NCBI RefSeq assembly: GCF_002154695.1 | Contig: NZ_MTAV01000014.1 | Coordinates: forward strand, 43,880-75,879 | From: Nostoc sp. T09 | Lineage (GTDB): Bacteria > Cyanobacteriota > Cyanobacteriia > Cyanobacteriales > Nostocaceae | DNA: 32,000 nucleotides | Direction of reading: 5' to 3' | In this document: in pieces, positions 3,252 to 18,785 of the stretch | How positions within the stretch are numbered: the stretch's first letter is position 1 | How the letters are laid out: every line of letters begins with the position of its first letter | Notes under the pieces: generated by a model | Seen by the model: the letters and a program-made list of their open reading frames with translations, nothing else | The model's database searches: none | Told to the model about the DNA's origin: nothing | Program-made: the position numbers and the translations under genes

Positions 3252-3743
3252 ATGACAACCCTCACCGAAGCCGATAGCATTAAAGCTCAAAGCACACCGG
3301 AACCGAAAAAAATCTTCACCACTGAAGAAATTCAAAACCTCCTGCCTCACCGCTACCCGTTTTTACTGGTAGATAAAATTATTGACTATGTTCCAGGAAA
3401 ACTAGCGGTAGGTGTGAAAAACGTCACTGTCAATGAACCCCAATTTCAAGGTCATTTCCCAGGAAGGCCACTGATGCCAGGAGTGCTAATTGTCGAAGCA
3501 ATGGCACAAGTAGGCGGTATAGTCCTGACGCAACTACCAGATTATGAAGCAGGTGGACTATTCGTGTTTGCTGGTATCGATAAAGTCCGCTTTCGTCGCC
3601 AAGTAGTTCCAGGAGATCAGCTAATCATGACGGTGGAACTGTTGTGGGTAAAACAGCGTCGTTTCGGTAAAATGCAGGGTCGTGCTGAAGTTGACGGTCA
3701 GATAGCTGCTGAAGGCGAATTAATGTTTTCTTTAGTAAACTAA
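3252..3743 (+). CDS. fabZ: 3-hydroxyacyl-ACP dehydratase FabZ
   Basis: The hot-dog fold motifs [33 protein letters not shown] are present, and the gene lies in lpx cluster context. Confidence 0.9.
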
Positions 3744-4034
3744 AAACCTGCTCTTGTGGTAGGGGCACAGCCGTGAAGTGCCTTTACTGAAACCTGAAAA
3801 AGGATAGCAGTAAAACTAACTAGCCACAAGAGTAATTTATAATTTCTTAATTTCGTCGCCCTCACACTTAACTTGCTTTGCCCGACACTTTCGGTAACTG
3901 AATACTTAGTGTTCAGTTACTGAGAGCTTAAATGTTCCGCAACGCCAGTCGCCTCAACGGGGAAACCCTAGCAGTACGCTGCCAGCCCAACCCAGAAAGG
4001 CGCAGGCTCTCAAGACAGTTCTGGAGATTCACCC

Positions 4035-4853
4035 TTGAAGACGCTTATTCACCCAACTGCTGTAATTCATCCTAACTCGGAACTCCACCCATCAGTGCAA
4101 GTCGGTGCCTATGCTGTGATTGGAGCGCATGTTAAAGTAGGTCCTGAAACAATAATTGGCGCTCATGTAGTGCTAGAAGGACCCTGTGAAATTGGGGCGC
4201 GAAATCAGATTTTCCCTGGTGCAACTATCGGCATGGAACCCCAGGATCTCAAATATGTGGGAGAACCTACCTGGGTCAAAATTGGTGACAATAACCAAAT
4301 TCGTGAGTACGTCACCATTAACCGCGCTACTGGTGCAGGGGAAGCGACAGTCATTGGCAACGGCAACCTATTGATGGCTTATGTCCATGTGGCTCATAAC
4401 TGCGTTATTGAAGACCATGTGATTATTCCCAACTCCGTAGCGCTCGCGGGTCATGTTCATATAGAATCACGCGCTAGACTAGGCGGGGTTTTGGGAGTCC
4501 ATCAATTTGTGCGTATTGGCAAGCACTCCATGATCGGGGGTATGGCACGTATTGACCGGGATGTGCCGCCATATATGCTTGTAGAGGGAAATCCAGCACG
4601 AGTGCGTACCCTCAACTTGGTAGGGCTAAAACGCTCTGGTATGAACCCGGGCGAGTTGCAAACCCTAAAAAAAGCTTTTCGGATTCTCTATCGCTCTAAC
4701 TTAACCTTTAAAGAGGCTTTGGAACAGCTAGAACTGCTGGGTGATACCGAACAGCTACAACACCTGCGCCGCTTCCTGCTACTTTCTAAGATGCCAGGAA
4801 GACGTGGTTTAATTCCTGGAAAGGGTAGACCAAGCGCTAGTGATGAGTCCTGA
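4035..4853 (+). CDS. lpxA: Acyl-ACP--UDP-N-acetylglucosamine O-acyltransferase LpxA
   Basis: The start is TTG. Left-handed beta-helix hexapeptide repeats are visible (IHPTAVIHPNSELHPSVQVGAYAVIGAHVKVG...), followed by an LpxA-type C-terminal helical domain. Confidence 0.9.
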   Translation: MKTLIHPTAVIHPNSELHPSVQVGAYAVIGAHVKVGPETIIGAHVVLEGPCEIGARNQIFPGATIGMEPQDLKYVGEPTWVKIGDNNQIREYVTINRATGAGEATVIGNGNLLMAYVHVAHNCVIEDHVIIPNSVALAGHVHIESRARLGGVLGVHQFVRIGKHSMIGGMARIDRDVPPYMLVEGNPARVRTLNLVGLKRSGMNPGELQTLKKAFRILYRSNLTFKEALEQLELLGDTEQLQHLRRFLLLSKMPGRRGLIPGKGRPSASDES

Positions 4854-4863
4854 GTCAGTTAGA

Positions 4864-5103
4864 AGTTTGAGTTGAGGTCTGAATCCCCGACTCAAACTAA
4901 GAATAACGTAGACGCGTACTCCTTCAAAGAAGCAAGCTACGCGGAGCGTTGCCGCAGGCTAGCGGCTTCCCGTTCCCTCGTAAAGCCCTTCGGGCATAGC
5001 TGCGCTTACCGCGTTAGCGTCTCCGTAGGAGAAGAGGGTTCCCGCAGGGTAGGGTACCACAAAGGACACAAAGGTCACGTTCGCCGGAGGCGTTCTTGAA
5101 GGG
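4864..5103. repeat. Structured, MITE-like intergenic repeat region between lpxA and lpxB
   Basis: A 9-bp hairpin pairs AGTTTGAGT (4864-4872) with ACTCAAACT (4890-4898). An imperfect inverted repeat pairs CCTTCAAAGAAGC (4921-4933) with GCGTTCTTGAAGG (5090-5102), matching at 10 of 13 positions. The ORFs predicted here (4872-5099 and 5014-5280) look like artefacts. Confidence 0.3.
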
Positions 5104-5235
5104 TAGAAATAAGAGTTTGAAAGAGATTTTGCGTAAGTACAAGATTACTCTGTTGCGTTTTTCTCTGCGACTCTGAGACTCTGCGTGAGATAAAAAAGAT
5201 GTTTTCCTGTCCCTTATTTTCTTCCTAATTACTAA

Positions 5236-6405
5236 ATGCGGATATTTATCAGCACTGGCGAAGTGTCTGGCGATTTGCAAGGTTCTTTACTAATTGCGGC
5301 GCTGAAGCGTCAAGCTGTGGCTGCTGGCTGGGAATTAGAGATTGTGGCACTTGGTGGCGAAAAAATGGCAGAGGTAGGAGCAACGATACTGGGCGATACT
5401 AGTCATATTGGCTCAATGGGTCTTCTAGAAGGCCTGCCTTATCTTGTACCTACTCTCCAGGTACAACGAAAAGCGATCGCCTACTTGAAGCAAAATCCCC
5501 CTGACCTGGTGCTGCTAATTGACTACATGAGTCCAAATCTCGGCATTGGTACCTATATGCAACAGCATTTACCAAAAGTGCCAGTAGTTTATTACATCGC
5601 TCCCCAAGAGTGGGTATGGTCTGTCAGTGTGCGTAACACCAACCGCATTGTCGGGTTTACAAATAAGCTTTTAGCCATCTTCCCCGAAGAAGCCCGTTAT
5701 TTTAGCCAGCAAGGTGCCGACGTTACCTGGGTGGGGCATCCACTAGTCGATCGGATGCAAACTGCCCCCAGTCGCCAGAAAGCCCGCGCTCAATTGGGAA
5801 TTGACCCAGAGACGATCGCGATCGCTCTCCTACCCGCTTCTCGTCGTCAAGAAGTAAAATATCTTTTACCTGTAATTTTTCAAGCTGCCCAAACTATTCA
5901 AGCTAAATTACCAGAGGTGCATTTCTGGATTCCCTTATCTTTAGAAGAATTTAGAAAGCCCATTGCAGCAGGAATTCAGAGTTATGGTTTGCGCGCGACA
6001 ATTGTATCGGGTCAACAAAAAGAAGTTTTTGCTGCTGCTGATTTTGCTATTACCAAATCAGGCACTGTCAACCTGGAACTTGCCCTGTTAAATGTACCGC
6101 AAGTGGTTGTCTATCGCCTAAACCCAATTACAGCTTGGATTGCTCGTAACATCCTTAAAGGTTCTATCCCCTTTGCATCGCCAACCAATTTGCTGGTGAT
6201 GCGGGAAATTGTGCCAGAGTTTTTACAAGAGCAAGCTACAGCAGAGAATATTATCCAAGCCACGATGGAATTACTGCTCAATCCTGATAAGAGACAGCAA
6301 ACCTTAGCAGATTATCAAGAAATGCGGCAGGGTTTGGGAGAATTAGGAGTATGCGATCGCGCTGCTCAAGAAATTTTGCAAATGCTACCGGATATGGGAG
6401 TTTAG
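5236..6405 (+). CDS. lpxB: Lipid-A-disaccharide synthase LpxB
   Basis: The N-terminus MRIFISTGEVSGDLQGSLL, the 389-aa length and the cluster context all fit LpxB. Confidence 0.9.
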   Translation: MRIFISTGEVSGDLQGSLLIAALKRQAVAAGWELEIVALGGEKMAEVGATILGDTSHIGSMGLLEGLPYLVPTLQVQRKAIAYLKQNPPDLVLLIDYMSPNLGIGTYMQQHLPKVPVVYYIAPQEWVWSVSVRNTNRIVGFTNKLLAIFPEEARYFSQQGADVTWVGHPLVDRMQTAPSRQKARAQLGIDPETIAIALLPASRRQEVKYLLPVIFQAAQTIQAKLPEVHFWIPLSLEEFRKPIAAGIQSYGLRATIVSGQQKEVFAAADFAITKSGTVNLELALLNVPQVVVYRLNPITAWIARNILKGSIPFASPTNLLVMREIVPEFLQEQATAENIIQATMELLLNPDKRQQTLADYQEMRQGLGELGVCDRAAQEILQMLPDMGV

Positions 6406-6457
6406 ATTTTAGATTGGGAGTTATTTGTAGAAATTTCAGAGTCAGCTTAGAGGTGTC

Positions 6458-6721
6458 ATGGCTCATGAGTTGAGAAAACAACGACCAATCGCAGTTGACT
6501 TGTTCGCCGGTGCAGGTGGGATGACTCTTGGCTTTGAACAAGCTGGCTTTGATGTACTCGCATCGGTGGAAATTGACCCCATTCATTGTGCAATCCACGA
6601 ATTTAACTTTCCCTTCTGGACGGTCTTATGCCAAAGCGTTGTAGACACAACTGGGGATGAAATTAGAAAGCGATCGCAGATTGGCGATCGTGAAATTGAT
6701 GTAGTCATTTGTGGGAGTCCT
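6458..6721 (+). pseudogene. 5' fragment of a DNA (cytosine-5) methyltransferase gene, truncated at motif IV
   Basis: It encodes motif I DLFAGAGGMTLGF and runs to ...VVICGSP. The frame then continues into unrelated AT-rich sequence (YNNNNFILHN...) and stops at 6790. Motifs VI-X are absent. About 60% of residues are identical to the N-terminus of the intact dcm at 12062. Confidence 0.8.
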
Positions 6722-6724
6722 TAT

Positions 6725-6769
6725 AACAACAACAATTTTATATTACACAATTTAGAAAAACAACAACAA
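6725..6769 (+). repeat. Two 11-bp direct repeats AACAACAACAA (6725-6735 and 6759-6769) just inside the left end of the element, upstream of the first recombinase gene
   Basis: Both are exact copies read directly from the sequence. Their position fits arm-type recombinase sites or promoter elements, but the function is untested. Confidence 0.3.
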
Positions 6770-6823
6770 ATAGCTTATTCTTCATGGTAAAGTTACTATA
6801 GTAAAACTTCCACGAAGTAGAAA

Positions 6824-7936
6824 GTGATAAGCCTAGAAAGAGCAATTAATCCTCAAACAGAGGAAAGATTTTGCTGCGTATTTGACACAGAAACTGGCTT
6901 GCCAATAGAACCAATCCAGCGATACTTAAACTACTGCCGTAAGCGTCAATTAGCAGCTAACACAGTTAACACTTATGCTTGTCGATTAGTAGATTTCTGG
7001 CAGTGGCTAGAATATAAATCTCTTAGCTGGCAAGATGTAGGACTCCAAGAACTGGCTGATTTTGTTAACTGGTATCTCCTTGGTGGCGAAGTAGAAGTTA
7101 TCTCCGAAGAAGTACGTGAAATAGTTTCCAAACGTAGCCCAAAAACAGTCAATCAAGCAGTTACAGCTATACAAGGACTCTATGAATTCCACATTGTAGA
7201 AGGTAGGATTGACGAAAAAGTTTTTGCTAAATTGGTTCATGGATGGGGCAAACGAGGTGGCTTCTTACGAGGCATAGTTAAAAGCACCCCAGAAAAACGC
7301 AAACGGATTAAAGTAAAAGAGCCAAAAATATTCCCTGGTTGTCTGACCGACGAACAAGTAGGTCAACTAGCAAATGCCTGTTACAGCTACAGAGACAGGC
7401 TGATAGTCATGCTACTGAGAGAAACGGGATTGCGGAGAGGAGAATTATTAGGCTTACATTTAGTAGACGTACAGGACTTTGATACTAGAGGAAGAATTAG
7501 AGTTGTAAGGCGGGACAATAATCCCAATGGCGCAATAGCTAAAGGCACAGAAAGAGAAATAGCAGTCCTTCATAACAGAGAGTCGGTTCAAGAAACTTTT
7601 CATGCTTATCTATTAGAAGAATATCCCTCAGAAGCAGAAAAACTCGGACATGGGATGCTGTTCGTTAATTTGGATGGCAAGTATATTGGAAAACCCATGA
7701 CCAGTGCAAGGTTAAATAGTCTGTTTTATCAACTAAAAGATCGAACAGGAATTGAAGCACATCCTCATTTATTCAGACATACTTTCGCTACTAGGATGCT
7801 CCAAGCGGGTTATGCAGATCACTACGTACAGCAACTATTAGGGCATAGTTCGATTGTGACTACTAAAGATATCTATTCTCATGTACTGAATGAAATGAGT
7901 CTAGATGCTTATTTATCAGCAGATGAGCAAAAATAA
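6824..7936 (+). CDS. Tyrosine recombinase/integrase, first of three in tandem
   Basis: The start is GTG. Catalytic signatures are GLRRGELLGL (Arg), HPHLFRHTFATRML (H-x-x-R-H) and LLGHSSIVTTKDIYSHV (His...Tyr). There is an N-terminal SAM-like core-binding region. Confidence 0.85.
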   Translation: MISLERAINPQTEERFCCVFDTETGLPIEPIQRYLNYCRKRQLAANTVNTYACRLVDFWQWLEYKSLSWQDVGLQELADFVNWYLLGGEVEVISEEVREIVSKRSPKTVNQAVTAIQGLYEFHIVEGRIDEKVFAKLVHGWGKRGGFLRGIVKSTPEKRKRIKVKEPKIFPGCLTDEQVGQLANACYSYRDRLIVMLLRETGLRRGELLGLHLVDVQDFDTRGRIRVVRRDNNPNGAIAKGTEREIAVLHNRESVQETFHAYLLEEYPSEAEKLGHGMLFVNLDGKYIGKPMTSARLNSLFYQLKDRTGIEAHPHLFRHTFATRMLQAGYADHYVQQLLGHSSIVTTKDIYSHVLNEMSLDAYLSADEQK

Positions 7937-7938
7937 TT

Positions 7939-9381
7939 ATGTTATCTCTAGAAGTCTTAAAAGAAAAGATAGCAAAATCAGAATTGGGACCAAAATGGCT
8001 ATATCTCCCTTTTTTTGAGAGAGATATTTGGTCTCTTGAAGAACTTAGTTACACAGAAGAAGAACGTAAATTTATTGGACACAGCAATCTTTATTTCAAG
8101 GGGTTTTCACTACTTTGGCTTAAGTTGTTGGCAAAATTAACCGTTTTAGCAACCTTTAGACAAAAACAATCATTGGATAATATTAGACATCGAATTACTT
8201 ACTTAAGACAATTGGATGAGTTTTTGATGGCTAAAGGCTATAGTCAGCCAGAAGATTTAACCGATACTCTATTGCGAGAGTATGTATCTCAAAGAATGAC
8301 AAAAGCTCGTCAACAATGTATAGCCTATGCAGTCAAATTATGGGCTGAAGAAGGATGGTTGAAATTAACTTATACTCATTTTAAAATTAAAAAAAAAGTT
8401 CCTAAACTAGAGACAATTCCAGAAGAAGTTCTTTATCAAATTTATGAGAATTTTGATCTTTTCCCACCGCAACTAGAAAGATTATTTAGACTCCAACTTG
8501 TTTTGGGATGTCGCATCGGAGAAATGCTCAGGATACCTCGCCAATGTTTGAAACAAGAAGACGATAAGTGGTTTATGCTGCGTTGGGTAGAGAAACGCAA
8601 ACAATGGCGGTTCTATCAAATTCATTATTTGTTAGCTGAATTGGTTCAAGAGCAACAGAAATTTTTAGATGGTAAATTTGGTGCTAATTCCAAATTTGAT
8701 AAATTGTTTTGTAAAGTTGATGTTTCATCTCATCGTTATAAAGGAAGATTTCACGTAGAGCCAGTTTATCAACCTGAAATTCTATCTTTTGCAACAACTG
8801 CACTTTGGTTAAGTGAATTTCGAGAAGAGGCTGACCTAAAAGATAAACACGGTAATAGATTTAAACTCACTAGCCATCATTTCCGCCGTACTAAAGCTAG
8901 TATCATGGCTTATTGTGAAGCAGAAGATGAATATATTGCTGCGGTTTTAGGTCATGCTTCTTTGGATATGCTGCCACATTATCGTAAGCGTTCTTTAGAG
9001 CGATTGGAGAAAGAGGCTAATTCTCAAGGATATGTCAATAAGTATGGTCAAGTTAGTAGCTTTAAACCTAGAAAACATAGATACGAGAAACTAGCTGAAA
9101 TTTTAAAAGTTAGCACTCCGCTAGGAGAATGCCACCGACCAAGTATATTAGGTGATTGCCAGTCCCGTTATGCCTGTCTAAGTTGCGATCACCATCGAGT
9201 TACTCTAGATGACAAGGCTAAGTTAGAGGCTGATTGCGAAAGCTTACAACAAGATTTAGAGCAAGCAAAAACTGTAGGGCAAGAAAGAAGAATTACTGAA
9301 ATTAATCGATTAATAGATTTGCTTAAAGTTCGATTAAAAGGCTTAGTAGAACTACAAAATTTGAAGATGGATGCAATATAA
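7939..9381 (+). CDS. Tyrosine recombinase, second of three, with a C-terminal Cys/His cluster
   Basis: Signatures are LGCRIGEML (Arg), TSHHFRRTKAS (H-x-x-R) and VLGHASLDMLPHYRK (His...Tyr). The C-terminus has CHRPSILGDCQSRYACLSCDHH followed by a coiled coil. It starts 2 nt after the upstream stop. Confidence 0.8.
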   Translation: MLSLEVLKEKIAKSELGPKWLYLPFFERDIWSLEELSYTEEERKFIGHSNLYFKGFSLLWLKLLAKLTVLATFRQKQSLDNIRHRITYLRQLDEFLMAKGYSQPEDLTDTLLREYVSQRMTKARQQCIAYAVKLWAEEGWLKLTYTHFKIKKKVPKLETIPEEVLYQIYENFDLFPPQLERLFRLQLVLGCRIGEMLRIPRQCLKQEDDKWFMLRWVEKRKQWRFYQIHYLLAELVQEQQKFLDGKFGANSKFDKLFCKVDVSSHRYKGRFHVEPVYQPEILSFATTALWLSEFREEADLKDKHGNRFKLTSHHFRRTKASIMAYCEAEDEYIAAVLGHASLDMLPHYRKRSLERLEKEANSQGYVNKYGQVSSFKPRKHRYEKLAEILKVSTPLGECHRPSILGDCQSRYACLSCDHHRVTLDDKAKLEADCESLQQDLEQAKTVGQERRITEINRLIDLLKVRLKGLVELQNLKMDAI

Positions 9382-11198
9382 TGACTCAACAGATATCTAA
9401 TACAATTTCTATTCATCCTACTTTATATGGACAATTAGAAGTAGATTGGAATAAAGAATATCAAGGTGAATTTATTTGCCCCAATTGTCAGAAAACCAAT
9501 CTGAAGAAAACTTCCTATAAAGAAAATTCAATATGTAAACTTAGATTTATTTGTAATACCTGCAATAAACGGATCTCTCTGACTTGTCTAGTTCCTGCCT
9601 TTATTTACAAATACCGCTCTGATATAGAATGTCCCAACCCACTTTGTACTCAATTAGGACATGATGGGCAAAAAGGATGGATATATACAATAAGAAATAT
9701 ATATGAACAGTGTAAATGTCGCTATTGCGGTGTTGGCTTTGAGCCTCAATCAACTGCCGCATCAAGCTGGGTTAATAGGACAACGGAAGGTCAATTATTA
9801 CCTTTTTGTTTTGAGGATGACATTTGGTATTTAAGACATTTCTACGATAATCCTTTTCCGCAATCAATTAGTTTTCAAAACATATCGCCGCAATGGTATC
9901 TATTAGAAGTTAAAAAATATATTCAATATTTACTCAAATCTAGAGTGTATTCTTCACCATCAGGAGTTAGACATACTCTAACAAATTTAAAGCAATTTGG
10001 AAAAATTCTAGACACTTATAAAATAAAACAAACTGCTGATATCAGTCGCGAAGCTGTACTCAGATTTTTAGATAATTACAAAAATTGCGATAACAAAACA
10101 ATCAATCATAAATTAAGCTACATAAAATCTTTTTTTGAATGGTTAGAACTTGATGCATCACACCTAATTCGTAGCCGTGATTACCTTAAAGAATCAAAAA
10201 ATGATGCTGACTGGTTGGATGAAGTAACGCGCACATCTATTAAAGAACATTTGTCGAAAATTCCTGCACCTATTGCTCGCCATTACCTGGTACAGGAGTA
10301 CACTGCTGCTCGTCCAGGAGATATTTGCCAATTAATTTTTGATTGCTTAGTAGAGGAAAATAGCAAATGGTATATCAAATTCTATCAACATAAAACTAAG
10401 CGTTGGCATCAAGTACCTGCTACCCGTGAAATTAGGCAATTAATTGAGGAACAACAACAATGGATAAGACAAGAAATTGGTCTAGAATATTCATATTTAT
10501 TTTGTCATTTCAGGAATATCAGGATCAAAAATTACCCTACTTTTACTACTATGAAGCCTTTGCCAATACCACCTCCGTTAACTATAAATGATAATAGGAT
10601 GGTAGCCATTATTCGTTTACTGATAGAAAAAGAAGACATCCGTGATGCTAATGGGCAGAGACCCCACTTCACAGGTAAAATCACTCGCCATAACAGGTTA
10701 CAAGAAGTACGAGTAAAACATGGTATTGAAGCTGCTCAACTTTATGCTGACCATGTTAGAAGTACTACTACTTTTCAAAACTATACACCTCCTACTAGAG
10801 AACAAGTAGCAGCAGTAGACTTGCCTTTTCAGGAACTGTTAATGAACCTGGATAACAAGTTCCTCCCTTGGCAATCTTTGCCAGAAAGCCTACTCAACAA
10901 CCCTAAAGCACACGAACTCGATCTCGAAATTGCACCACGCTTAGTGGTCTATGGACACTGTGCCCTCGACCCGAAAACGCCCTGTCCTGTTAATCTTTAC
11001 CCCAAATGCTATGGCTGTTCCAGTTTTCGCCCTAGCACTGGTAAATTACCTCTCTATGAACGTCAATATAACGGAGAACAACAAAGACTAACTGAAGCAG
11101 AACAAGCTGGTGCAGAATTAGCAAAAGAAGAAGCCAAAGCCACCATCGAGGCGATGGATAAATGGCTACCAGAACTAAGAAATTTAGCACATGGCTAA
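9381..11198 (+). CDS. Large tyrosine recombinase, third of three, with N-terminal zinc-ribbon-like Cys pairs
   Basis: The start overlaps the upstream stop (TAATG). N-terminal Cys pairs are CPNCQK...CNTCNK and CPNPLC...CRYCG. The catalytic-domain candidates are TAARPGDICQL (Arg), KITRHNR (K-x-x-R-H) and ADHVRSTTTFQNY (His...Tyr). There is a C-terminal Cys cluster CALDPKTPCPVNLYPKCYGC. Confidence 0.7.
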   Translation: MTQQISNTISIHPTLYGQLEVDWNKEYQGEFICPNCQKTNLKKTSYKENSICKLRFICNTCNKRISLTCLVPAFIYKYRSDIECPNPLCTQLGHDGQKGWIYTIRNIYEQCKCRYCGVGFEPQSTAASSWVNRTTEGQLLPFCFEDDIWYLRHFYDNPFPQSISFQNISPQWYLLEVKKYIQYLLKSRVYSSPSGVRHTLTNLKQFGKILDTYKIKQTADISREAVLRFLDNYKNCDNKTINHKLSYIKSFFEWLELDASHLIRSRDYLKESKNDADWLDEVTRTSIKEHLSKIPAPIARHYLVQEYTAARPGDICQLIFDCLVEENSKWYIKFYQHKTKRWHQVPATREIRQLIEEQQQWIRQEIGLEYSYLFCHFRNIRIKNYPTFTTMKPLPIPPPLTINDNRMVAIIRLLIEKEDIRDANGQRPHFTGKITRHNRLQEVRVKHGIEAAQLYADHVRSTTTFQNYTPPTREQVAAVDLPFQELLMNLDNKFLPWQSLPESLLNNPKAHELDLEIAPRLVVYGHCALDPKTPCPVNLYPKCYGCSSFRPSTGKLPLYERQYNGEQQRLTEAEQAGAELAKEEAKATIEAMDKWLPELRNLAHG

Positions 11199-12072
11199 AA
11201 AACATAATCGCGATAAACAAGCTGAAGTTCTGCGTCGTACTCAAGCTCAAAGAAAGGAACAAAAAAAAGAACAAGTATTAAAAGCTATTAAAGTAATACT
11301 TGATCAAAAACAGCCATTGACATTTGCAAAGATTGCTAATGTTTCTGGCTGTTCTATTTCTTATCTCTATAAATGGGATGAGATTAAGGCATATATCCAC
11401 GAACTTCAACAGGAAAAGGAGACTAAACTAAATCCCTTAGAAGAAAAAGACCCAAGACCCCATAGCCTTAAAACTCTACATGAAGTTGCTAGGCAAAGAA
11501 TTAGAGAACTGGAAGCGGAGATTAGGGAACTCAAACACCAGAATGAAAAACTCAGAGGTCATGTCGCAGAAATCTATGAACTTAAAGATGAGTGCGATCG
11601 CCTACGATCGCAGTTACGAGAGAAAGCTTCTGCTGATTCATCGACAAAGATAATTTCCTTAAGAATAAATAAACCTGAGACAAGTTCCTCTACACCTGAT
11701 ATACCTAAACCCAGTGAAGTTCATACTGCTGATATTCAACTAGAAGACTCGGATATCTTTCAATTAATTAACGAAATGGGGATTAAGATGAATTCAAAAC
11801 TAAAGCAAGAAATAGCAAGTCGTGAATATCATAAAGTTAAGTTATCAATTGAAGCTTTTCAAGAGTATCGTAGTAAAACTGATATAGAGAATCCTGCTGC
11901 TTGCTTACTAACCATGATACGTGATGAAGCAAAGCCTAATATCCCCGAAGGATCGACACTTAAACCATCAAGTAAATCTTCAGTTGCTATGCATAATAAT
12001 CAAAAAAAATTAATTTCTCACGATAAGCTCAAACAACTTAGCAAGTTATTTAACGAAAAGAATGAAGAGTAA
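11191..12072 (+). CDS. HTH plus coiled-coil accessory protein of the recombinase module, in the position of ginD/tnpC
   Basis: It overlaps the upstream gene by 8 nt and the downstream dcm by 11 nt. Features are a basic N-terminus, a probable HTH (LTFAKIANVSGCSISYLYKW) and a heptad-rich stretch (IRELEAEIRELKHQNEKLRGHVAEIYELKDECDRLRSQLRE). The function is inferred from position only. Confidence 0.45.
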   Translation: MAKKHNRDKQAEVLRRTQAQRKEQKKEQVLKAIKVILDQKQPLTFAKIANVSGCSISYLYKWDEIKAYIHELQQEKETKLNPLEEKDPRPHSLKTLHEVARQRIRELEAEIRELKHQNEKLRGHVAEIYELKDECDRLRSQLREKASADSSTKIISLRINKPETSSSTPDIPKPSEVHTADIQLEDSDIFQLINEMGIKMNSKLKQEIASREYHKVKLSIEAFQEYRSKTDIENPAACLLTMIRDEAKPNIPEGSTLKPSSKSSVAMHNNQKKLISHDKLKQLSKLFNEKNEE

Positions 12073-13339
12073 GCTAAAAAGACCAATAGCAATAGATCTA
12101 TTTGCTGGTGCGGGAGGGCTAAGTTTAGGATTTGAGCAAGCTGGATTTGATGTAAAAGCTGCTGTTGAAATCGATCCAGTTCATGCTGCTGTTCATAAGT
12201 TTAATTTTCCTTATTGCGTTGTATTACCTTGTTCGATCACTGAGTTATCAGGGAAAGATATTCGAGAAAGAAGTGGAATTGGCAACCAAAATATAGAAAT
12301 TATTATTTCTGGGTCTCCCTGCCAAGGTTACTCCTATATGGGTCGTCGAGTATTAGACGATCCAAGAAATTTTTTAGTAAAAGATTTTATAAGATTAGTC
12401 TTAGAGCTAAAGCCTTCTTATTTCGTTTTTGAAAACGTCAAAGGTTTTACAGTTAGTAAATATCAATCATTTTTAGATGAATTAATTGAAACTTTCAGTA
12501 ATAATAATTATCAAATCTGTTTACCCTGGAAAGTCCTTAATGCTGCTTATTATGGAATACCACAAAAGAGAGAAAGACTATTTCTAATTGGTGCAAAGAA
12601 AGGTTGTGTCTTGCCTGAGTATCCTGCTCCATGTAGCCAACCACTTTTTGCAAAGTTAGCCAATCCTATCTTACCTCCTACTCCATCTTGTTGGGATGCC
12701 CTCAAAGATTTACCAGAAGCAGAAGAATTTGAGGAATTACTATATAGTGATTGCGTAGAAACGGGACAATGGAGCAATCCCAGCCACTATGGGCGAGAAA
12801 TGAGATGTTTAGATGATAGTAGCTGGCATTTTGGCTATAGGAGAAATTGGAATCCCTTTCTTTTGACTTCTAGCATAAGAACTAATCATTCGCCAATCTC
12901 ACGAGCTAGATTTCATGCCACAGTACAGGGAAAGAAAGAACCTGTTTCTCACTTCTTCAAATTGGCACAAGATGGCATAGCTAATACCTTAAGGGCAGGA
13001 ACTGATGCTGCTCATGGCTCACACACATCTCCAAGACCTATTCATTACAGTAGTCCTCGCTGTATTACTGTACGAGAAATGGCACGATTACATGGGTTTC
13101 CTGATTGGTTTCGTTTTCACATCACAAAATGGCATGGTGCGAGACAGGTAGGAAATTCAGTTCCGCCACCATTGGCGAGAGCAATTGGTACAGAAATTAT
13201 GAAATGTTTGGGAATGAATCCAACTACTCCTGAAGATGTTTTGGATCTGGGAGATCCCAAACTTTTATCAATGACTATGAAACAAGCTGCAAATTATTGG
13301 CAGCTTACTATACCAACTAAAGATATTATCAATGTCTAA
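12062..13339 (+). CDS. dcm: DNA (cytosine-5)-methyltransferase, intact
   Basis: All key m5C-MTase motifs are present: I DLFAGAGGLSLGF, IV GSPCQGYS, VI ENVKG, VIII QKRERLFLIG, IX TVREMARLHGFPDWF and X GNSVPPPLA. Confidence 0.9.
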   Translation: MKSKLKRPIAIDLFAGAGGLSLGFEQAGFDVKAAVEIDPVHAAVHKFNFPYCVVLPCSITELSGKDIRERSGIGNQNIEIIISGSPCQGYSYMGRRVLDDPRNFLVKDFIRLVLELKPSYFVFENVKGFTVSKYQSFLDELIETFSNNNYQICLPWKVLNAAYYGIPQKRERLFLIGAKKGCVLPEYPAPCSQPLFAKLANPILPPTPSCWDALKDLPEAEEFEELLYSDCVETGQWSNPSHYGREMRCLDDSSWHFGYRRNWNPFLLTSSIRTNHSPISRARFHATVQGKKEPVSHFFKLAQDGIANTLRAGTDAAHGSHTSPRPIHYSSPRCITVREMARLHGFPDWFRFHITKWHGARQVGNSVPPPLARAIGTEIMKCLGMNPTTPEDVLDLGDPKLLSMTMKQAANYWQLTIPTKDIINV

Positions 13340-14645
13340 GAGTAACCAGTTTTTAGGAAACTTAGAAGCAGAAGAAGCCATACTAGGGGGTATCTTACTT
13401 GACCCTAATGCTATTAGCATAGTTGCTAATATTCTTCCTGTAGAGGCTTTTGGTACTCATGGTAATCAACAAATTTATAAGGCAGCTTTAGAGTTATATC
13501 AAAATAATAAGCAAACAGATTTAATGACTATTTCTACTTGGTTGTCAGACCATAAAGTATTAGAAAAAATAGGAGGTAATAATAAACTATCTCAACTTCT
13601 TACCCGTACTGTATCAGCAGTAAATATAGACCATTATGCTGCCCTAGTACTGGATAAATACCAACGCCGTCAATTAGTAGCAGTAGGACATACCATAGTT
13701 GATTTAGGTTGCGATACTAGCATTGAATTAGAACAAGTATTTGAGCAATCTGAACAAAAACTATTTAATCTCACAACTAACAAGAAAGCTAGATTTCAAC
13801 CCAAACCTATTCATGAGTGTTTAGCTAATGTCCTGAATAAGATAGAGCAAGGTTCATCTCCTGCTTATCCTACGGGTTTAGTAGACTTAGATGCTCTCAT
13901 TGGTGGCTTAATTAAACAAGACTTGATTGTGGTTGCTGCTAGACCATCTATGGGTAAAAGCTGGTTCGGCTGTTATCTGACTAATTATATTGCAAGCAGT
14001 ATTCAGAAGCCAGTATTGTTCTTTAGTGCAGAGATGTCTGAGGAACAACTGACTAAAAGATTCCTCTCTATGCACACAGGTATTGATTCCCAAAGACTCA
14101 TGCACAATCAAATTTATGAGGAGGAATATGATTCTTTAGTACAAGGTTTATCTAATCTAGGTAAACTGCCCATTATCATTGATGATACTCCAGCAAGTGA
14201 ATTAACTCCCACTAAAATTCGTTCTGCACTTCGTAGAATAGAATCTGAAAGAGGAGAGTTAGGATTAGTAGTATTAGACTACATTCAAAAGCTTGGAGAT
14301 AGAGCAGCAGGTAATAGAGCGCAAGCAATTGGTAAATATTGTGGTGCTTGTAAGGATATTGCTAAAACCTTCAATGTCCCATTTGTAGTTCTGGCTCAAA
14401 TTAATCGTGGTGTAGAAGGTCAAAGTAATAAACGTCCTTCTATGGCTGATATAAAGGACTCTGGCGATATTGAACAGGACATGGACTTAGGACTACTACT
14501 TTATCGAGATGAATATTACAACTCGAATACTAGCGATCAAGGAATTATGGAGATAATAGTCGCTAAAAATAGAAATGGTATAACAGATACTTGTAAGGTG
14601 GTGTTTGACCCTAGTATTGGTAACTTCTCTGATTACAAAAATTAG
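13332..14645 (+). CDS. DnaB-family replicative DNA helicase, element-borne paralogue
   Basis: It has a DnaB N-terminal domain (EAEEAILGGILLDP), Walker A ARPSMGKSWF, Walker B LVVLDYIQ and LAQINRGVE...DIKDSGDIEQDMD. It overlaps the dcm stop by 8 nt. No intein is present. Confidence 0.85.
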   Translation: MSKSNQFLGNLEAEEAILGGILLDPNAISIVANILPVEAFGTHGNQQIYKAALELYQNNKQTDLMTISTWLSDHKVLEKIGGNNKLSQLLTRTVSAVNIDHYAALVLDKYQRRQLVAVGHTIVDLGCDTSIELEQVFEQSEQKLFNLTTNKKARFQPKPIHECLANVLNKIEQGSSPAYPTGLVDLDALIGGLIKQDLIVVAARPSMGKSWFGCYLTNYIASSIQKPVLFFSAEMSEEQLTKRFLSMHTGIDSQRLMHNQIYEEEYDSLVQGLSNLGKLPIIIDDTPASELTPTKIRSALRRIESERGELGLVVLDYIQKLGDRAAGNRAQAIGKYCGACKDIAKTFNVPFVVLAQINRGVEGQSNKRPSMADIKDSGDIEQDMDLGLLLYRDEYYNSNTSDQGIMEIIVAKNRNGITDTCKVVFDPSIGNFSDYKN

Positions 14646-14784
14646 CTAAATCATGAAACTGTAGGATTTAATGTGGAAGTCACCCAGTACAAGAGTAAAA
14701 GCGATCGCATCCCATAATCTTTTCTTTCCCTCACGCGAGCCAATTTTTACAAAATAATTCTATTTATTGGAAGACTGTCAGTCT

Positions 14785-17700
14785 TTAGCTAGCATCTTGT
14801 GTCAACCTATGATATACCTTCTCTAGTATCCAGTCCTTCACTGCTCCGCCAAATTCTTTGTCATCTATAATTTTCGCAAATATATCTTGGTTTAAATCCA
14901 TGCGCTCAATCAGTTTTGTGAGAAAAATATCCTCAAATCCATATTTGAAGTTCTGAATTGAGTTGCTTTTAGCTTGTTGTGATAGTACTTCATCTTGAAC
15001 TAATGCTTCCTCAATTTGGCTAAAAAAGTATTTATCTGCTTCCGTAAAATCGGTACGAAATCTTTGGTTGAGGATGTCTATAATTTCTGAGAGTTTAGCT
15101 TGTGTCTCTTTTTCTCTAGGTATGCCAGCTTCAGTTATTGGTTGCAGATGTGATTCTGCATTTTTTTCTAAGACAATTCTACCTTCTCTGATTTTTTGTA
15201 ATCGATAATATTCCAGTGCAACTTCATCAGTGAGTTTAAAAACTTCGCTTTGGCTGCGTTTTGGTAATTTAGTTTGCAGTAGACGAGCAAAAGCATAGAA
15301 TTTTTCTAGTTCTTCATCTGCAAAGGGCATAATCTGGGACAAGAAAGCATATAGCCTGATGAATGTAGTTAAACTATTTTTAAATTCATCTTGTTGTTCT
15401 TCGCCTAATGCCTTAAAACGGTCAACAGCAGGATCAACTAGGGAATGAAGCCTACTGTGATCTTGCTTGTTTGTCTTTTCCTGAGATTTAAAAAATACCT
15501 GCGTGAAAGCATCTACATCGCTATTCCAAATGATTTGGTAGCTATCTAGCCTATTTTTTAAGTCATATAGTCGGTTAGGATCTGTGGTTGATGCTAGTGT
15601 AGTTTGTTCATAATAAAGCTGGAAAGCATCAATAATTTCTTGCTCTGAATTAGCAAAATCTAAAACAAAGGTATCTTCTTTGCCTGAAAAAGTGCGATTC
15701 AAGCGAGATAAAGTTTGTACGGCTTTGACTCCAGACAGTTTTTTATCCACGTACATGGTGTGTAACAATGGCTGGTCAAAACCAGTTTGATACTTGTCTG
15801 CGACAATCAAGAGTTGATATTCACCAGACTCAAACTTTTCCGGTAATTCCCGTTCACCAAAACCGTTGAGATCATATTCAGTGTATTTAATAGCTGTTTC
15901 TCGATCAGTGAAACTGGTAAAAGCTACCAATGCTTTGATATCAACATAACCTTGCTTTCTTAAATAGTTATCAAATTCTTCTTTATAGCGCACTACGTGA
16001 GGACGAGAAGCAGTAACTACCATTGCCTTTGCTTTTCCACCAATTTTGTGCATGACGCATTGGCGAAAATGTTCGATGATCACTTCAGTTTTTTGAGCTA
16101 AGTTATGTGGATGCAGAGATAAAAACCTGGCTATAGCCCGACTTGCTTTCTTCGCATTAATTTTAGGGTCATCTGCGATCGCTTTAGAAATTTGGAAATA
16201 AGTTTTATAGGTTGTGTAATTCTGCAACACATCCATAATGAACCCTTCTTCAATTGCTTGGCGCATGGAATACAAATGAAAGGGTTCTGGAAGACCTTGG
16301 GCATTAATTTGACCAAATTCTTCCAAGGTTTTTTGCTTTGGTGTGGCAGTGAAAGCAAAGAAGCTCAAGTTCGGTTGTTTACCACGAATATGCATCTCTT
16401 TGCGGATATTGTCTTCAATATCTTCTTCTTCTGTCATGCTTTCCTCTTTAGCTGAACGGCTGAGGTCATTGACAGAAAGGACTTCTTTCATTTTCTTGGA
16501 TGCTTCGCCACTTTGAGAACTATGGGCTTCATCCACTATTAAAGCGTAATTGCGTTTTGGTAGTTGGGCAATGTTGTTTTTTTCTAAGATTTCCCGAATC
16601 TTATCCAAGACGAAAGGAAATTTTTGCAAGGTAGTAATAACAATATTAGTTCCAGAAACCAAAGCTTCGGCTAGTTGGGTAGAGTTTTTATCAATTTTTT
16701 GCACAACACCTTGCTTATGCTCAAATTGATAAATTGTGTCTTGTAGCTGCTGATCTAGTACCCTCCTATCAGTGATAACGATGACTAAATCAAAAACTCG
16801 CTCATTTTGGTTGTTGTATAAACTAGCAAGTTGATATGCTAACCAGGCAATGGAGTTACTTTTGCCACTACCAGCAGAATGCTGAATTAGGTAATCATGT
16901 CCTGGTCCCTTAACTTTTGCATCTGCGGTCAACTTGCGAACCACATCTAATTGGTGAAATCGAGGGAATATAAGGGTTTCTTTTTTGGCGGATTTACCAT
17001 TGAGTTTAATGTTTTGCTGCTCAAGGTGCAAAAAACGACCCACGATGTCTAGCCAACTGTCTTTCGCCCATATATCTTCCCAGAGATAGGCGGTTTTGTA
17101 GCCGTTGGGGTTGGGAGGGTTGCCTGCACCTTTGTTGAAGCCTTTGTTGAATGGTAGAAAGCGGGTATTACTACCTTCAATGCGGGTAGTCATCCAGACT
17201 TCATCCGGGTCTACAGCAAAATGTACCAAAGTACGACGCTTAAATTGAAATAATAAATCTCGGTTATCCCGGTCTTGGATATACTGGCGCTTGGCTTTAT
17301 CTACATCTTGTCTGGTAAATTGGTTTTTTAGTTCTACTGTGGCGACTGGCAAACCATTGATACTTAACAGTAGATCTATTGAGTTTCCATGTTGATCACT
17401 GTAGTGTACCTGACGAGTTACTGTGAGGATATTTTGGTTATAAAGTACTAGAGTATCGGGGTTTAGTCCACTTGCGGGTTTGAAGAATGCTAATTTGAAG
17501 CGTACACTGTAGTCAATGATACCATATCGCAGTACATCTAACATCCCACGATTATTCAATTCTTGATACAGCCTTTGCATGAACTTAGGTTCAACCTCAG
17601 CACCATGAATGTCTGTCAGATGTTGCCATGCTTCCATCTGAGAAGTTTGAATAAACCTCAGTAGAGTGGCTTGATCGAGTGCTAGTTCTTGAATAAAATT

Positions 17701-17796
17701 GCTAGCATACCCTTCTTCATAGCCACCATTACTTAATAAGCTGGCAATGATTGCATTTTCAAAAGCTTTTTCGGTTGTCTGAACAGTTGCAGTCAT
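14785..17796 (-). CDS. hsdR: Type I restriction enzyme R subunit (HsdR)
   Basis: The protein is 1003 aa. SF2 helicase motifs are QHSAGSGKSNS (I), IVDEAHSSQ (II, DEAH), FTATP (III) and QTLSRLNR (VI). There is an N-terminal nuclease-type region. The start overlaps the upstream stop (ATGA). Confidence 0.9.
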   Translation of the reverse strand: MTATVQTTEKAFENAIIASLLSNGGYEEGYASNFIQELALDQATLLRFIQTSQMEAWQHLTDIHGAEVEPKFMQRLYQELNNRGMLDVLRYGIIDYSVRFKLAFFKPASGLNPDTLVLYNQNILTVTRQVHYSDQHGNSIDLLLSINGLPVATVELKNQFTRQDVDKAKRQYIQDRDNRDLLFQFKRRTLVHFAVDPDEVWMTTRIEGSNTRFLPFNKGFNKGAGNPPNPNGYKTAYLWEDIWAKDSWLDIVGRFLHLEQQNIKLNGKSAKKETLIFPRFHQLDVVRKLTADAKVKGPGHDYLIQHSAGSGKSNSIAWLAYQLASLYNNQNERVFDLVIVITDRRVLDQQLQDTIYQFEHKQGVVQKIDKNSTQLAEALVSGTNIVITTLQKFPFVLDKIREILEKNNIAQLPKRNYALIVDEAHSSQSGEASKKMKEVLSVNDLSRSAKEESMTEEEDIEDNIRKEMHIRGKQPNLSFFAFTATPKQKTLEEFGQINAQGLPEPFHLYSMRQAIEEGFIMDVLQNYTTYKTYFQISKAIADDPKINAKKASRAIARFLSLHPHNLAQKTEVIIEHFRQCVMHKIGGKAKAMVVTASRPHVVRYKEEFDNYLRKQGYVDIKALVAFTSFTDRETAIKYTEYDLNGFGERELPEKFESGEYQLLIVADKYQTGFDQPLLHTMYVDKKLSGVKAVQTLSRLNRTFSGKEDTFVLDFANSEQEIIDAFQLYYEQTTLASTTDPNRLYDLKNRLDSYQIIWNSDVDAFTQVFFKSQEKTNKQDHSRLHSLVDPAVDRFKALGEEQQDEFKNSLTTFIRLYAFLSQIMPFADEELEKFYAFARLLQTKLPKRSQSEVFKLTDEVALEYYRLQKIREGRIVLEKNAESHLQPITEAGIPREKETQAKLSEIIDILNQRFRTDFTEADKYFFSQIEEALVQDEVLSQQAKSNSIQNFKYGFEDIFLTKLIERMDLNQDIFAKIIDDKEFGGAVKDWILEKVYHRLTQDAS

Positions 17797-18785
17797 AGTT
17801 GTGCCTCGGTCTGTTCAATTATTTTTACAGTATTTAAGAATTGCTCATAGGCAACCTGACGGAGGATTTCTTGTAATTTGCCCCTTTGAAATTCATTTAA
17901 ATCTAACTTGAGATTATCCTCTTCGTTGTAGCAAAGGTTGACAAAAGTGATTTCATCGGTATGTAAAAATTTTGCTACATCTGGTTTTTTATCAGGCAGA
18001 TTGTTAATTAATTCGCAGGTATCTGGGTCAAAATACAGATGCACTAAATTTTGAATGCCAACAACAGGGCGACCTTGATAGTGGGGCTTGCCATCACTAG
18101 ATTGCCACAGAACACCAAAGACTTTGCAATTTCCAGAACGGTAGACTTTCCCGATTTGTGGTGCACCTCTAATACTAGATGAGGGTCGTGAAGTATCCCG
18201 AATTTTTCTGATGAGTAGTTTTAAGGGTTGCATATCTAGCTTGATATCTGTCATCCCCACAACTTCATAAAGTTCTAAAATCAAATCGTCACTTTCAATA
18301 TCTCCAATAAAGCAGACTGGCTCAGAATCATCTAGATAGCAACGTTCGGCTGTAAATACTTCTACTTTTAGATCATAGAACAGTCGCCAAACATAAAACT
18401 CACTGGTTTGCCAGCGCCAACCCCCGAATATAAATTGAGCTTCACTTCTCGCTTCATCGTAGTTTGGGCGGTTAATTTCACTGAGATCAATGGCTTGAGC
18501 AAGATCAGTAAAGAGAGCTTTTGTGTGGTTGAGGATGTCTAATAAATCTGTCTGCGGATTTTTCAGAGCAGGAGAAGTATTGATTGTCTGAATTAGGTTG
18601 AGAATCATGGGGTATGCACGATTGGTTTCTCCTGCAAAACAGATGAAACAGTCTCTGCGGGGCAATTCAAAAAGTTTTACTCCCGCTTCCCATCGTTCAC
18701 CCGCAGAAAGACAACTATCGGTTGCAAATACTAATTCTTGATCGCCTGTCGGTGTATGACGTACCCAGGCTGCACATAAAGTCAT
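17793..18785 (-). CDS. Uncharacterised 330-aa protein embedded in the type I R-M operon. The N-terminal ~185 aa resemble the HslV/proteasome-beta Ntn-hydrolase fold, and the C-terminal ~145 aa are unassigned.
   Basis: ATGA overlaps link it to both hsdS (18782-18785) and hsdR (17793-17796). The pattern MT-LCAAWV...LVFATDSCLSAGE...GVKLFEL...FICFAGETNRAY...VCFIGDIESDD parallels E. coli HslV MTTIVSV...VVIAGDGQAT...VKKVRRL...IAGFAGGTADAF...IAIGSGGPYA, recalled from memory. The gene call is solid and the fold call is inference. Confidence 0.55.
   Translation of the reverse strand: MTLCAAWVRHTPTGDQELVFATDSCLSAGERWEAGVKLFELPRRDCFICFAGETNRAYPMILNLIQTINTSPALKNPQTDLLDILNHTKALFTDLAQAIDLSEINRPNYDEARSEAQFIFGGWRWQTSEFYVWRLFYDLKVEVFTAERCYLDDSEPVCFIGDIESDDLILELYEVVGMTDIKLDMQPLKLLIRKIRDTSRPSSSIRGAPQIGKVYRSGNCKVFGVLWQSSDGKPHYQGRPVVGIQNLVHLYFDPDTCELINNLPDKKPDVAKFLHTDEITFVNLCYNEEDNLKLDLNEFQRGKLQEILRQVAYEQFLNTVKIIEQTEAQL

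Follow-up and report, generated by a model that had tools for sequence, protein, structure and literature searches.

Background

To our knowledge, Tn554, the GInt islands and the SEs (strand-biased circularizing integrative elements) make up the only studied transposons or islands that are driven by sets of tyrosine recombinases. Two questions arise about the transposition of such elements, namely cut-out versus copy-out and the need for two or three recombinases. Here we describe what is very probably a relative of these elements in a cyanobacterium, Nostoc sp. T09. It lies in a stretch of 32,000 nucleotides (nt; NCBI RefSeq assembly GCF_002154695.1, contig NZ_MTAV01000014.1, positions 43,880 to 75,879), which we call the window. 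Coordinates are window positions unless another sequence is named.

In GInts, three recombinase-fold genes and a small fourth gene form an overlapping operon at the 5' end of the island. Variable cargo, commonly restriction-modification (R-M) genes, starts from the stop codon of the fourth gene, the 3' end is short and AT-rich, and a 6-nt stagger has been proposed (PMC5385486). SEs consist of a small recombinase, a middle protein, a large recombinase and a small TnpC-like protein (PMC10214605). Both in Tn554 and in SEs, the target core is recombinase-proximal and the donor core distal (PMC10214605 for the SEs), as in the cyanobacterial family described below. No GInts from cyanobacteria are reported in the GInt literature, and in the literature that we searched, no Tn554-like element with DnaB is described for a cyanobacterium. 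The sole mention, in passing, is of a tyrosine-recombinase element that resides in comM of cyanobacteria (PMC9881144).

Results and discussion

Insertion site and extent of the element

The left part of the window (1-6405, GC 0.47) is a housekeeping cluster, bamA-lpxC-fabZ-lpxA-lpxB. It is followed by a 110-codon open reading frame (ORF; 6458-6790), the first 88 codons of which belong to dcm, a C5-cytosine methylase gene, while the rest is element DNA up to a stop at 6790. This severed 5' part of a host dcm had been overlooked in the preliminary description of the locus. It ends after Gly-Ser-Pro of the catalytic PCQ motif (...GGG AGT CC/T TAT AAC AAC..., the slash marking the junction). Exactly at this point GC drops from 0.469 to 0.375, and a value of about 0.38 is held throughout the element. 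The fragment itself is host-like, with a GC of 0.468 and an identity to relatives of 47-50% at 4-fold degenerate sites, similar to the host genes.

An empty site is present in Nostoc sp. 'Peltigera membranacea cyanobiont' N6, where the gene order purC-bamA-lpxC-fabZ-lpxA-lpxB-dcm ends with an intact dcm of 422 amino acids (aa). Mojavia pulchra JT2-VF2 (locus L003) contains the same arrangement as T09 behind lpxB, with L003 7100-15296 matching window positions 6481-14677 at 94.4%. Its right junction reads ...TTTTACATTGTGGAATAACTATAATCCACCC/TGTCAAGGGTTTTCG..., which translates as PPCQGFSLIGKR... and represents the missing 3' part of the host dcm. Thus, in Mojavia both dcm halves flank the element precisely, the 3' half being 79% identical to N6, and the protein rebuilt from these halves has intact orthologues of 413-441 aa (80-87% identity) throughout the Nostocales. 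N6 positions 7990-8257 align to window positions 6447-6714 and N6 8260-9248 to the Mojavia right flank, with no loss on insertion. With the 6-bp cores in brackets, attB of N6 is GTGG[CTCACC]ATGTCAAGG, attL of Mojavia is GTGG[CTCACC]TTATAAC and attR of Mojavia is CTATAA[TCCACC]CTGTCAAGG. The left core of Mojavia is that of attB; in its right core, two positions deviate. These alignments show that the element lies in a conserved Nostocales dcm, itself downstream of lpxB, and separates the Pro codon from the Cys codon of the catalytic PCQ motif.

The homology between T09 and Mojavia breaks at 14677, just past DnaB, where Mojavia carries a different R-M cargo. It resumes at 22352 and extends, at 95.5% identity, to 24142, which in Mojavia corresponds to the right-end motif abutting the dcm 3' half. 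Because of this, we delimit the element to 6721-24142 (17.4 kb; Table 1). We are confident that it belongs to the Tn554 superfamily, as a site-specific integrative element with three recombinases, and that its layout is GInt-like. The preliminary description had taken a six-gene operon at 6720-14681 for the whole element. Its start was within 1 nt of the true left end, while its end has to be moved to 24142, and the six genes represent only the conserved left module. Could the element nevertheless consist of the six-gene block alone, with the R-M genes and all that lies to the right of them being ordinary host DNA? The break of homology at 14677 would agree with this, as would relatives possessing DnaB and no cargo, which end 100-500 nt past dnaB. 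Such a short element is, however, already refuted by the Mojavia attR junction: the stretch between the two homologous parts is swapped R-M cargo, and GC stays at the same level throughout. We therefore regard it as extremely improbable.

Our initial idea was another one, namely that a 5.6-kb element (6721 to ~12320) ends at the PCQ motif of the full dcm at 12062-13339. This dcm would then be chimeric, its 5' end newly brought to the host by the element, and its 3' part as well as dnaB would be host genes. Indeed, the severed fragment on the left shares about 70% DNA identity with the 5' part of the full-length gene, the likeness stops in both at the PCQ codons, the minimal relatives measure 5.4-6.5 kb, and the window contains no other dcm remnant. 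The model was ruled out by the Mojavia 3' half and by silent-site data. Mojavia possesses the same full-length dcm plus the true host 3' half 8 kb further on, and the 4-fold-site identity of this full-length cargo dcm (90%) is element-like. Moreover, the ends are TTATAAC/ATATAA, not dcm, and DnaB travels with the recombinases in other phyla-level clades. Hence a chimeric dcm retains next to no probability.

Beyond 24148, the T09 DNA is neither the dcm 3' part nor syntenic with the right flank of Mojavia or N6, and the 3' half is absent from the whole window. In Mojavia and Nostoc sp. WHI, by comparison, the two flanks match. The finding in T09 points to a deletion or rearrangement of the right flank next to the element. 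As the right-hand host flank is lost, excision could not restore the host gene here.

Table 1 Features of the Nostoc sp. T09 element and its junctions
Feature	Position	Strand	Remarks
Severed host dcm, 5' part, 88 codons	6458-6720	+	PF00145 E 3e-12; 86% aa identity to N6 dcm residues 1-88
attL 6-bp overlap GAGTCC, target-derived	6715-6720		GTGG[GAGTCC]TTATAAC; from alignment of attB (N6), attL and attR
Left end	6721-6823	+	terminal TTATAACAACAAC; GC 0.243
YR1, TnpA-like tyrosine recombinase	6824-7936	+	370 aa; PF00589 104.9 bits
YR2, second TnpB-like tyrosine recombinase, C-terminal Cys cluster	7939-9381	+	480 aa; PF00589 31.8 bits
YR3, large TnpB-like tyrosine recombinase	9381-11198	+	605 aa; PF00589 27.2 bits; PF02899 also matches
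TnpC-like protein, PF19776/DUF6262	11191-12072	+	293 aa; 45 bits
Cargo dcm (C5-cytosine methylase)	12062-13339	+	425 aa; PF00145 DNA_methylase 220.8 bits
DnaB-family replicative helicase	13332-14645	+	437 aa; DnaB_C 251.5 bits, DnaB 89.6 bits
Variable cargo, type I R-M system	14678-22351	-	
hsdR	14785-17796	-	Pfam
330-aa gene between hsdR and hsdS	17793-18785	-	overlaps both neighbours by 4 nt
hsdS	18782-20104	-	Pfam, precomputed for the same contig
hsdM	20107-22188	-	Pfam, precomputed for the same contig
Conserved right arm	22352-24142		95.5% identical to Mojavia L003 19333-21123
201-aa membrane-like protein (right arm)	22352-22957	-	
Cro/C1-type helix-turn-helix protein (right arm)	23204-23497	+	HTH_26 match
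100-aa protein (right arm)	23625-23927	+	
AT-rich right end			carries TTTTACATTGTGGAATAGATATAA at 24119-24142; last 215 nt GC 0.256
attR 6-bp overlap GCGGGG	24143-24148		GATATAA[GCGGGG]ATGGG; then ATGGGAAAACGCGG...

The six-gene left module

All six ORFs on the + strand between 6824 and 14645 are intact. They follow one another with a 2-nt gap, a 1-nt TAATG overlap and then overlaps of 8, 11 and 8 nt, which bears out the unbroken run from the recombinases into dcm and the DnaB-like helicase given in the preliminary description. From these gene overlaps, we infer co-transcription of the six genes. No terminator-like signal exceeding shuffled expectation was found in the DnaB 3' region. The preliminary description had also recognized three consecutive tyrosine recombinases and a fourth helix-turn-helix/coiled-coil gene from sequence signatures. 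All three recombinases indeed reach the PF00589 cut-off of 27.1 bits, and the fourth protein clearly exceeds that of PF19776 (29 bits). The element DnaB scores 445 bits on TIGR00665 (cut-off 385). In NCBIfam, there was no equivalog-level family for any of the four core proteins, the matches to gamma-mobile-trio (GmtY) and VPA1267 being far under cut-off. One YR3 homologue bears the UniRef name 'Tn554, transposase B'. YR3 itself is 100% identical to an NCBI entry of Nostoc sp. T09; exact-match look-ups with LpxB and YR3 retrieved this strain alone, and those with two further proteins (P0123 and P0125) retrieved none.

Alignments of 24-38 family members revealed full catalytic sets in all three recombinases. 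In YR1, residues R204, K240, H315, R318, H341 and Y351 are invariant (38 sequences). In YR2, the same holds for R192, H313, R316, H339 and Y348 as well as for the Cys cluster C398/C407/C413/C416. In YR3 (24 sequences), R311, K338, R436, H458 and Y468 are invariant and R439 is conserved in at least 90%; its H/K-x-x-R box has the form R-x-x-R. The TnpC-like protein combines a DUF6262 helix-turn-helix/coiled-coil N-terminal part with a family-specific C-terminal extension, and YR3 combines an N-terminal zinc-ribbon region with a C-terminal Cys cluster. The zinc-ribbon unit of about 65 aa (window 9381-9700) is repeated in tandem one to five times in homologues, yielding proteins of 605 to 882 aa (arrays are seen for example in L029 2892-3689, L046 10001-10822 and L033 10001-10588). 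This variable array could be a DNA-reading arm tied to target choice.

Recent movement, copies and ends

At 4-fold degenerate sites, T09 and Mojavia are 84-92% identical in the six element genes, the whole cargo dcm included, and 47-70% identical in bamA, lpxC, fabZ, lpxA, lpxB and the host dcm fragment. The corresponding values for T09 and Nostoc WHI are 76-94% in element genes and 48-65% in flank genes. High silent-site identity in the element together with low identity in the flanks implies recent transfer of an element much younger than the divergence of its hosts, and therefore either independent entry into the same site or exchange. As judged from the silent sites, a recent movement of the element between Nostoc lineages is thus shown.

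We then searched one genome per species using an alignment of YR3 homologues as a query. The search yielded 52 related loci, nearly all in cyanobacterial assemblies, in which the four-gene layout is conserved. One to three copies, at different targets, are present per genome among the relatives. Gloeomargaritales VI4D9 harbours three copies of a 5418-bp four-gene version; two of them are 100% identical in different flanks and the third is 99.3% identical. Several copies occur also in Mastigocoleus, Crocosphaera chwakensis and Stanieria, and plasmid-borne copies were found in Nostoc C117, Brasilonema, Chondrocystis and Stanieria. Copies elsewhere and an empty site, both of which should exist if the block is mobile, as the preliminary description proposed, are thus present.

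An insertion in a conserved gene of heterocyst formers could also be a developmentally excised interruption element, comparable to those in nifD, fdxN and hupL. It would then stay in the gene and leave it in certain cells, whereby dcm would be restored. Both pieces of the split gene have remained ORFs in Mojavia and in Calothrix HK-06, and interruption elements outside nitrogen-fixation genes are known (PMC4874684). However, the family resides in unicellular and non-heterocystous cyanobacteria as well, is multi-copy, occurs on plasmids and has many targets. Its arrival in these Nostoc genomes was horizontal and recent according to silent sites, the 3' half is gone in T09, and known interruption elements possess a single recombinase. 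We consider this explanation very unlikely.

The sequence of the left end is kept in about 40 loci, while the preceding flanks differ. Across subfamilies, the left end is TTATAAC(AACAA) and the right end is G(T/G)(A/G)GAATnn(n)ATATAA followed by 6 bp; in T09, the last bases before 24142 are ...GGAATAGATATAA. Joined ends would therefore form a palindromic core, ATATAA-N6-TTATAA, i.e. two palindromic half-sites separated by a 6-bp spacer. In T09, the left end contains an imperfect inverted repeat, TATATTACACAATTTAGAA (6739-6757), with a right sub-terminal counterpart, TTTTACATTGTGGAATAGATATA. A further copy of the repeat, TTCCACGAAGTAGAA (6808-6822), abuts the start codon of YR1.

Some loci display identical 6 bp on both sides (CCGAAT in L017, GACTGA in L009 and CCGTTC in L031). 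In L032, attL contains GCCCTA and attR contains CCGTTC, the latter being the core of the sister copy L031. Such comparisons suggest that the target core is recombinase-proximal and the donor core distal, and that non-matching 6-bp cores are tolerated.

Two further observations concern the right-hand part of the elements. In T09, a perfect hairpin, GAGACGTGC-ATTTAA-GCACGTCTC (23960-23995), followed by a T-rich stretch, is situated just past the 100-aa ORF and is kept in Mojavia; it is likely a terminator facing the element end. On one Xenococcaceae contig (L006 6260-8107 versus L007 13748-13968), the element DnaB is followed by a 1.6-kb segment, behind which the last ~50 DnaB codons occur a second time together with the right end. 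This is an insertion or duplication near the right end. As for the variable cargo of T09, the 330-aa gene between hsdR and hsdS had no match in Pfam or NCBIfam and may be an accessory of the type I R-M system.

DnaB and the tail of the TnpC-like protein

In 22 of the 46 informative loci, the TnpC-like gene is directly followed by that of DnaB, and the two usually overlap by 4 nt. In T09 itself, dcm lies between the two. The preliminary description treated both genes as parts of one module, and here it needs to be amended: DnaB recurs as a fifth gene in roughly half of the family, whereas dcm is not core but clade-specific cargo, present only in the dcm-targeting clade. DnaB is found also in the divergent elements of L018, the recombinases of which are 29-43% identical, and on the Chondrocystis plasmid. 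A two-recombinase variant in Stanieria PCC 7437 has a DnaB 75% identical to that of T09, while its recombinases are only 28-37% identical. This variant exists in three copies (Stanieria cyanosphaera PCC 7437, L073-L075; two on the chromosome, one on a plasmid) encoding proteins of 364 aa and 557 aa, DUF6262 and DnaB, each copy lying behind an IS200/IS605 tnpA-tnpB pair. The best 120 DnaB homologues are all cyanobacterial, 420-447 aa long and include known element-bearing taxa; no obvious chromosomal Nostoc DnaB was among them. As DnaB is conserved where the recombinases diverge, it is a long-standing and strongly constrained partner, though not a universal one, and the 5.4-6.5-kb forms devoid of DnaB have still multiplied.

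The C-terminal tail of the TnpC-like protein (about 40 residues, 253-293; window 11950-12072) was present in 21 of the 22 loci with DnaB and in one of the 24 loci lacking it, these being raw counts that ignore shared ancestry. The tail may be a DnaB contact. By analogy with dcm, we also considered that DnaB-bearing elements might target dnaB, which was ruled out since the reconstructed targets are other genes.

What might a replicative helicase do in such an element? It would probably serve replication of an excised or copied-out circle. One could go further and view the whole as an integrated plasmid-like or phage-like replicon in which DnaB is the autonomous replication module and the recombinase trio only integrates and excises, in the manner of integrative conjugative or mobilisable elements. 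DnaB conservation of 65-94% where the recombinases fall to 28-43% would fit this, and island-borne DnaB families are known (NCBIfam NF040583, SPI-7-type). On the other hand, 6721-24142 contains no initiator, relaxase, partition, capsid or conjugation genes, and about half of the family, including the 5.4-kb multi-copy form, multiplied without DnaB. In addition, the element DnaB scores under the cut-offs of the phage and SPI-7-type models. We thus find a replicon of this kind unlikely, if somewhat less so than a developmental interruption element, and prefer the site-specific integrative element of the Tn554 superfamily.

Targets of the family and the cargo methylase

In the T09 clade, every member with a visible left or right flank sits in the PCQ codons of some dcm, and the cargo dcm is found in this clade only. 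The target is the lpxB-linked host dcm in T09, Mojavia, WHI and Nostoc P12545. In Calothrix HK-06 it is a dcm of a short type (attR ...AACATAA[TTCACC]TTGCCAAGAT, right flank seen, reading SPCQDFS), and in Nostoc FACHB-888 a third dcm (...GGFP/CQ). The cargo dcm resembles the particular target. That of T09 shares 54% identity over 417 aa with the intact N6 host dcm, and that of HK-06 shares 61.5% over 226 aa with the interrupted remainder, while identity across the T09 and HK-06 types is only 26-40%, over shorter stretches. This match of subfamilies between cargo and target suggests compensation for the destroyed methylase.

The targets of other sublineages were deduced from reconstructed or junction-abutting ORFs. 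They include genes for an AAA_24 ATPase, cut in Walker B (IIIDS/L; L027), an IS605-type TnpB, cut in the TNB domain (L031 and L051), a RecD-like helicase, cut at DQLPSVG (L019 and L021), a Mu-type transposase (L011 and L012), a Strawberry-notch-like helicase (L036), a dynamin-like GTPase (L022) and an APH-like kinase (L023). HNH-like ORFs cut at C-x-x-C-H (L009, L045 and L046) and the YR1 gene of a divergent family member (L018 and L015) complete the list. The family seems to make a habit of interrupting genes at the codons of conserved motifs, and these genes often belong to other mobile or defence systems.

In the case of the YR1 gene, two members lie head to head (L018 2100-6750; L015 5257-5880), the closer relative being inserted in the YR1-like gene (GLKHED region) of a DnaB-bearing divergent member. 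Apparently, one element has here interrupted a competitor's recombinase gene. Many of the left flanks of L008, L009, L026, L033, L037, L039, L045 and L046 contain (G/A)TG(G/A)CA... 6-7 nt before the junction, which on the opposite strand corresponds to Cys-His codons, as in S-G-C-H or C-x-x-C-H. These flanks suggest a sublineage aiming at HNH-type nuclease genes; one reconstructed HNH-like target ORF was not recognized by Pfam.

A proposed model of transposition and possible compensation

According to the mechanism that we propose, YR1 (TnpA-like) and the two TnpB-like proteins YR2 and YR3 would assemble on both element ends. Strand exchange would then proceed over a 6-bp staggered overlap with no need for overlap homology, as in Tn554, the TnpC-like protein setting direction or orientation. 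The element would leave as a circle or a copied-out circle, and the co-translated DnaB would support replication of this circular intermediate. Once inserted, the operon may be transcribed from two promoters, its own and that of the host dcm, and the cargo dcm would supply the methylation lost with the split host dcm. The heteromeric recombinase complex, the circular and possibly replicating intermediate and the read-through from the host promoter are all steps that we infer.

A wider reading would treat the family as a distinct class of replicative tyrosine-recombinase transposon. In this class, i) copy-out of the element as a circle would be the work of three active recombinases and an enlarged TnpC-like protein, ii) a dedicated co-translated helicase would replicate the circle, with the TnpC tail as a possible loader or tether, iii) every sublineage would have the codons of some conserved catalytic motif as its homing site, and iv) the dcm sublineage would destroy a C5-methylase at its active-site codons and bring a methylase of the same subfamily. 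That all these parts hold together is possible, and we put it forward tentatively, considering it rather unlikely as a whole. If true, a genome that lost the element would no longer be methylated, in effect an addiction.

Several observations weigh against the proposed element or the functions assigned to its parts. In the 100-nt left end, a promoter scan revealed no convincing sigma-70-like promoter and nothing over shuffled expectation. A strict search for joined ends (right end-N6-left end) gave 0 matches in the fetched loci and metagenome contigs. A looser pattern matched the metagenome contigs eight times, never beside a recombinase, and these are therefore chance matches. The T09 copy, having lost its right-hand host partner, may be stranded. 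The cargo dcm of FACHB-888 (L076) has decayed to its last 70 codons and is therefore not indispensable, and the roles given to DnaB and to the cargo dcm are deduced ones. Finally, the interrupted dcm of HK-06 could itself be cargo of an older element, in which case the match between cargo and target would be explained in the absence of compensation.

A related situation is seen in FACHB-888 (L076 1-1400), where the target dcm is situated just downstream of a C-terminal DnaB fragment 44% identical to the element DnaB. Considering this foreign fragment, the target may belong to another mobile element.

The family extends elements with tyrosine-recombinase sets to Cyanobacteria and offers a natural comparison series, comprising a two-recombinase form, a three-recombinase form with complete catalytic sets, forms with and without DnaB, and the minimal 5.4-kb form that has multiplied within one genome. 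In the recurrence of the helicase, we see a concrete hint at a replicating intermediate. Targets at active-site codons (PCQ of dcm, Walker B, motifs of helicases, zinc finger of TnpB) and a matched methylase bear on the reshaping of R-M and methylation in cyanobacteria by mobile elements, several of these methylases being conserved orphan enzymes. As for annotation, a 'replicative DNA helicase' or 'DNA cytosine methyltransferase' in such loci is an element gene, not a host housekeeping gene.

Comparison with known systems

For comparison with Tn554, we used the canonical copy on the Staphylococcus aureus plasmid pWBG14; this copy follows a JAB/RadC-like gene and contains ant(9)-Ia and erm(A). 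In BLASTP, YR1 matched TnpA (29.7% over 357 aa, E 1e-45), YR3 matched TnpB (25.7% over 253 aa, E 7e-18) and so did YR2 (23.8% over 202 aa, E 9e-8; C-terminal Cys motif 44% over 25 aa, E 1e-4), while the fourth protein matched TnpC (29% over 110 aa, E 4e-8). TnpC of Tn554 scores 55.4 bits on PF19776 and is named 'DUF6262 family protein' in RefSeq. YR2 and YR3 are paralogues (E 4e-11); the T09 element is thus related to Tn554, but its TnpB-type gene is duplicated. By sequence, Tn554 is its nearest characterised relative.

With Tn554 and its relatives in Staphylococcus and Enterococcus (Tn558, Tn559, Tn6674), the family shares tnpA-tnpB-tnpC homologues in the same order, the TnpB-type C-terminal Cys cluster, site-specific insertion into a gene and short imperfect terminal inverted repeats. 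Another shared trait is that one junction has 6 bp derived from the target and the other has 6 bp derived from the donor. Tn554, however, has two recombinases and inserts at att554 in radC, whereas the cyanobacterial family has three and targets dcm and other genes. The TnpC-like protein is 293 aa long here and 125 aa in Tn554, zinc ribbons are present at the N-terminus of YR3, DnaB recurs as a fifth gene, and the cargo comprises methylase and restriction genes instead of antibiotic resistance. The hosts are Cyanobacteria, and identity to Tn554 proteins is only 24-30%.

The tripartite layout of GInts is matched in the operon, in the cargo swapped between T09 and Mojavia and in the AT-rich 3' end. 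Site-specific insertion within or at the end of conserved genes, short imperfect flanking repeats, a cargo beginning at the fourth gene's stop codon, R-M systems as frequent cargo and a 6-nt stagger, in GInts a proposed one, are further common traits. This comparison draws on the layout and on the published description of GinA-D. For GInts, excision as a circle and integration are held to require all four genes. In contrast to YR1, YR2 and YR3, which are all complete, GinC lacks part of the catalytic RHRHY set. The flanking repeats of GInts are 10-17 nt long versus 6-7 nt here, and the gin core does not include DnaB.

SEs resemble the family in gene order, in the 6-bp 'fingerprint/footprint' junctions, in the few selected targets and in the lack of mobilisation genes. 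Unlike YR2, which has the full set, their middle protein Tfp lacks the RHRY set, and SEs, which include srap, are known from Gammaproteobacteria only. On a Pseudomonas plasmid, a four-gene module of the general SE/GInt type was weakly similar (YR1 27%, YR2 E 7e-5, fourth protein under the PF19776 cut-off).

RIT elements, compared by description, encode the recombinases RitA, RitB and RitC and have no TnpC-like gene; the PF19776 gene and the homology to TnpA and TnpB point to the Tn554 group rather than to RIT elements. Two-recombinase modules of the Tn554 type, in the order TnpA-like, TnpB-like and DUF6262, are present on Bacillus, Mycobacterium and Legionella plasmids. Like the Stanieria variant, they have one recombinase fewer, and the recombinases of both are 28-37% identical to those of T09.

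The kinship with GInts and Tn554 suggested in the preliminary description is upheld by these matches and by the GInt-like layout. Its idea of a distinct lineage is likewise borne out by a cyanobacterial family with three catalytically complete recombinases and, often, DnaB. We regard the family as a variant of the Tn554/GInt kind in Cyanobacteria and not as a new category of system. What is new in comparison with the known kinds is a second TnpB-like recombinase, three full catalytic sets, DnaB in about half of the loci and a cargo dcm matched to the target.

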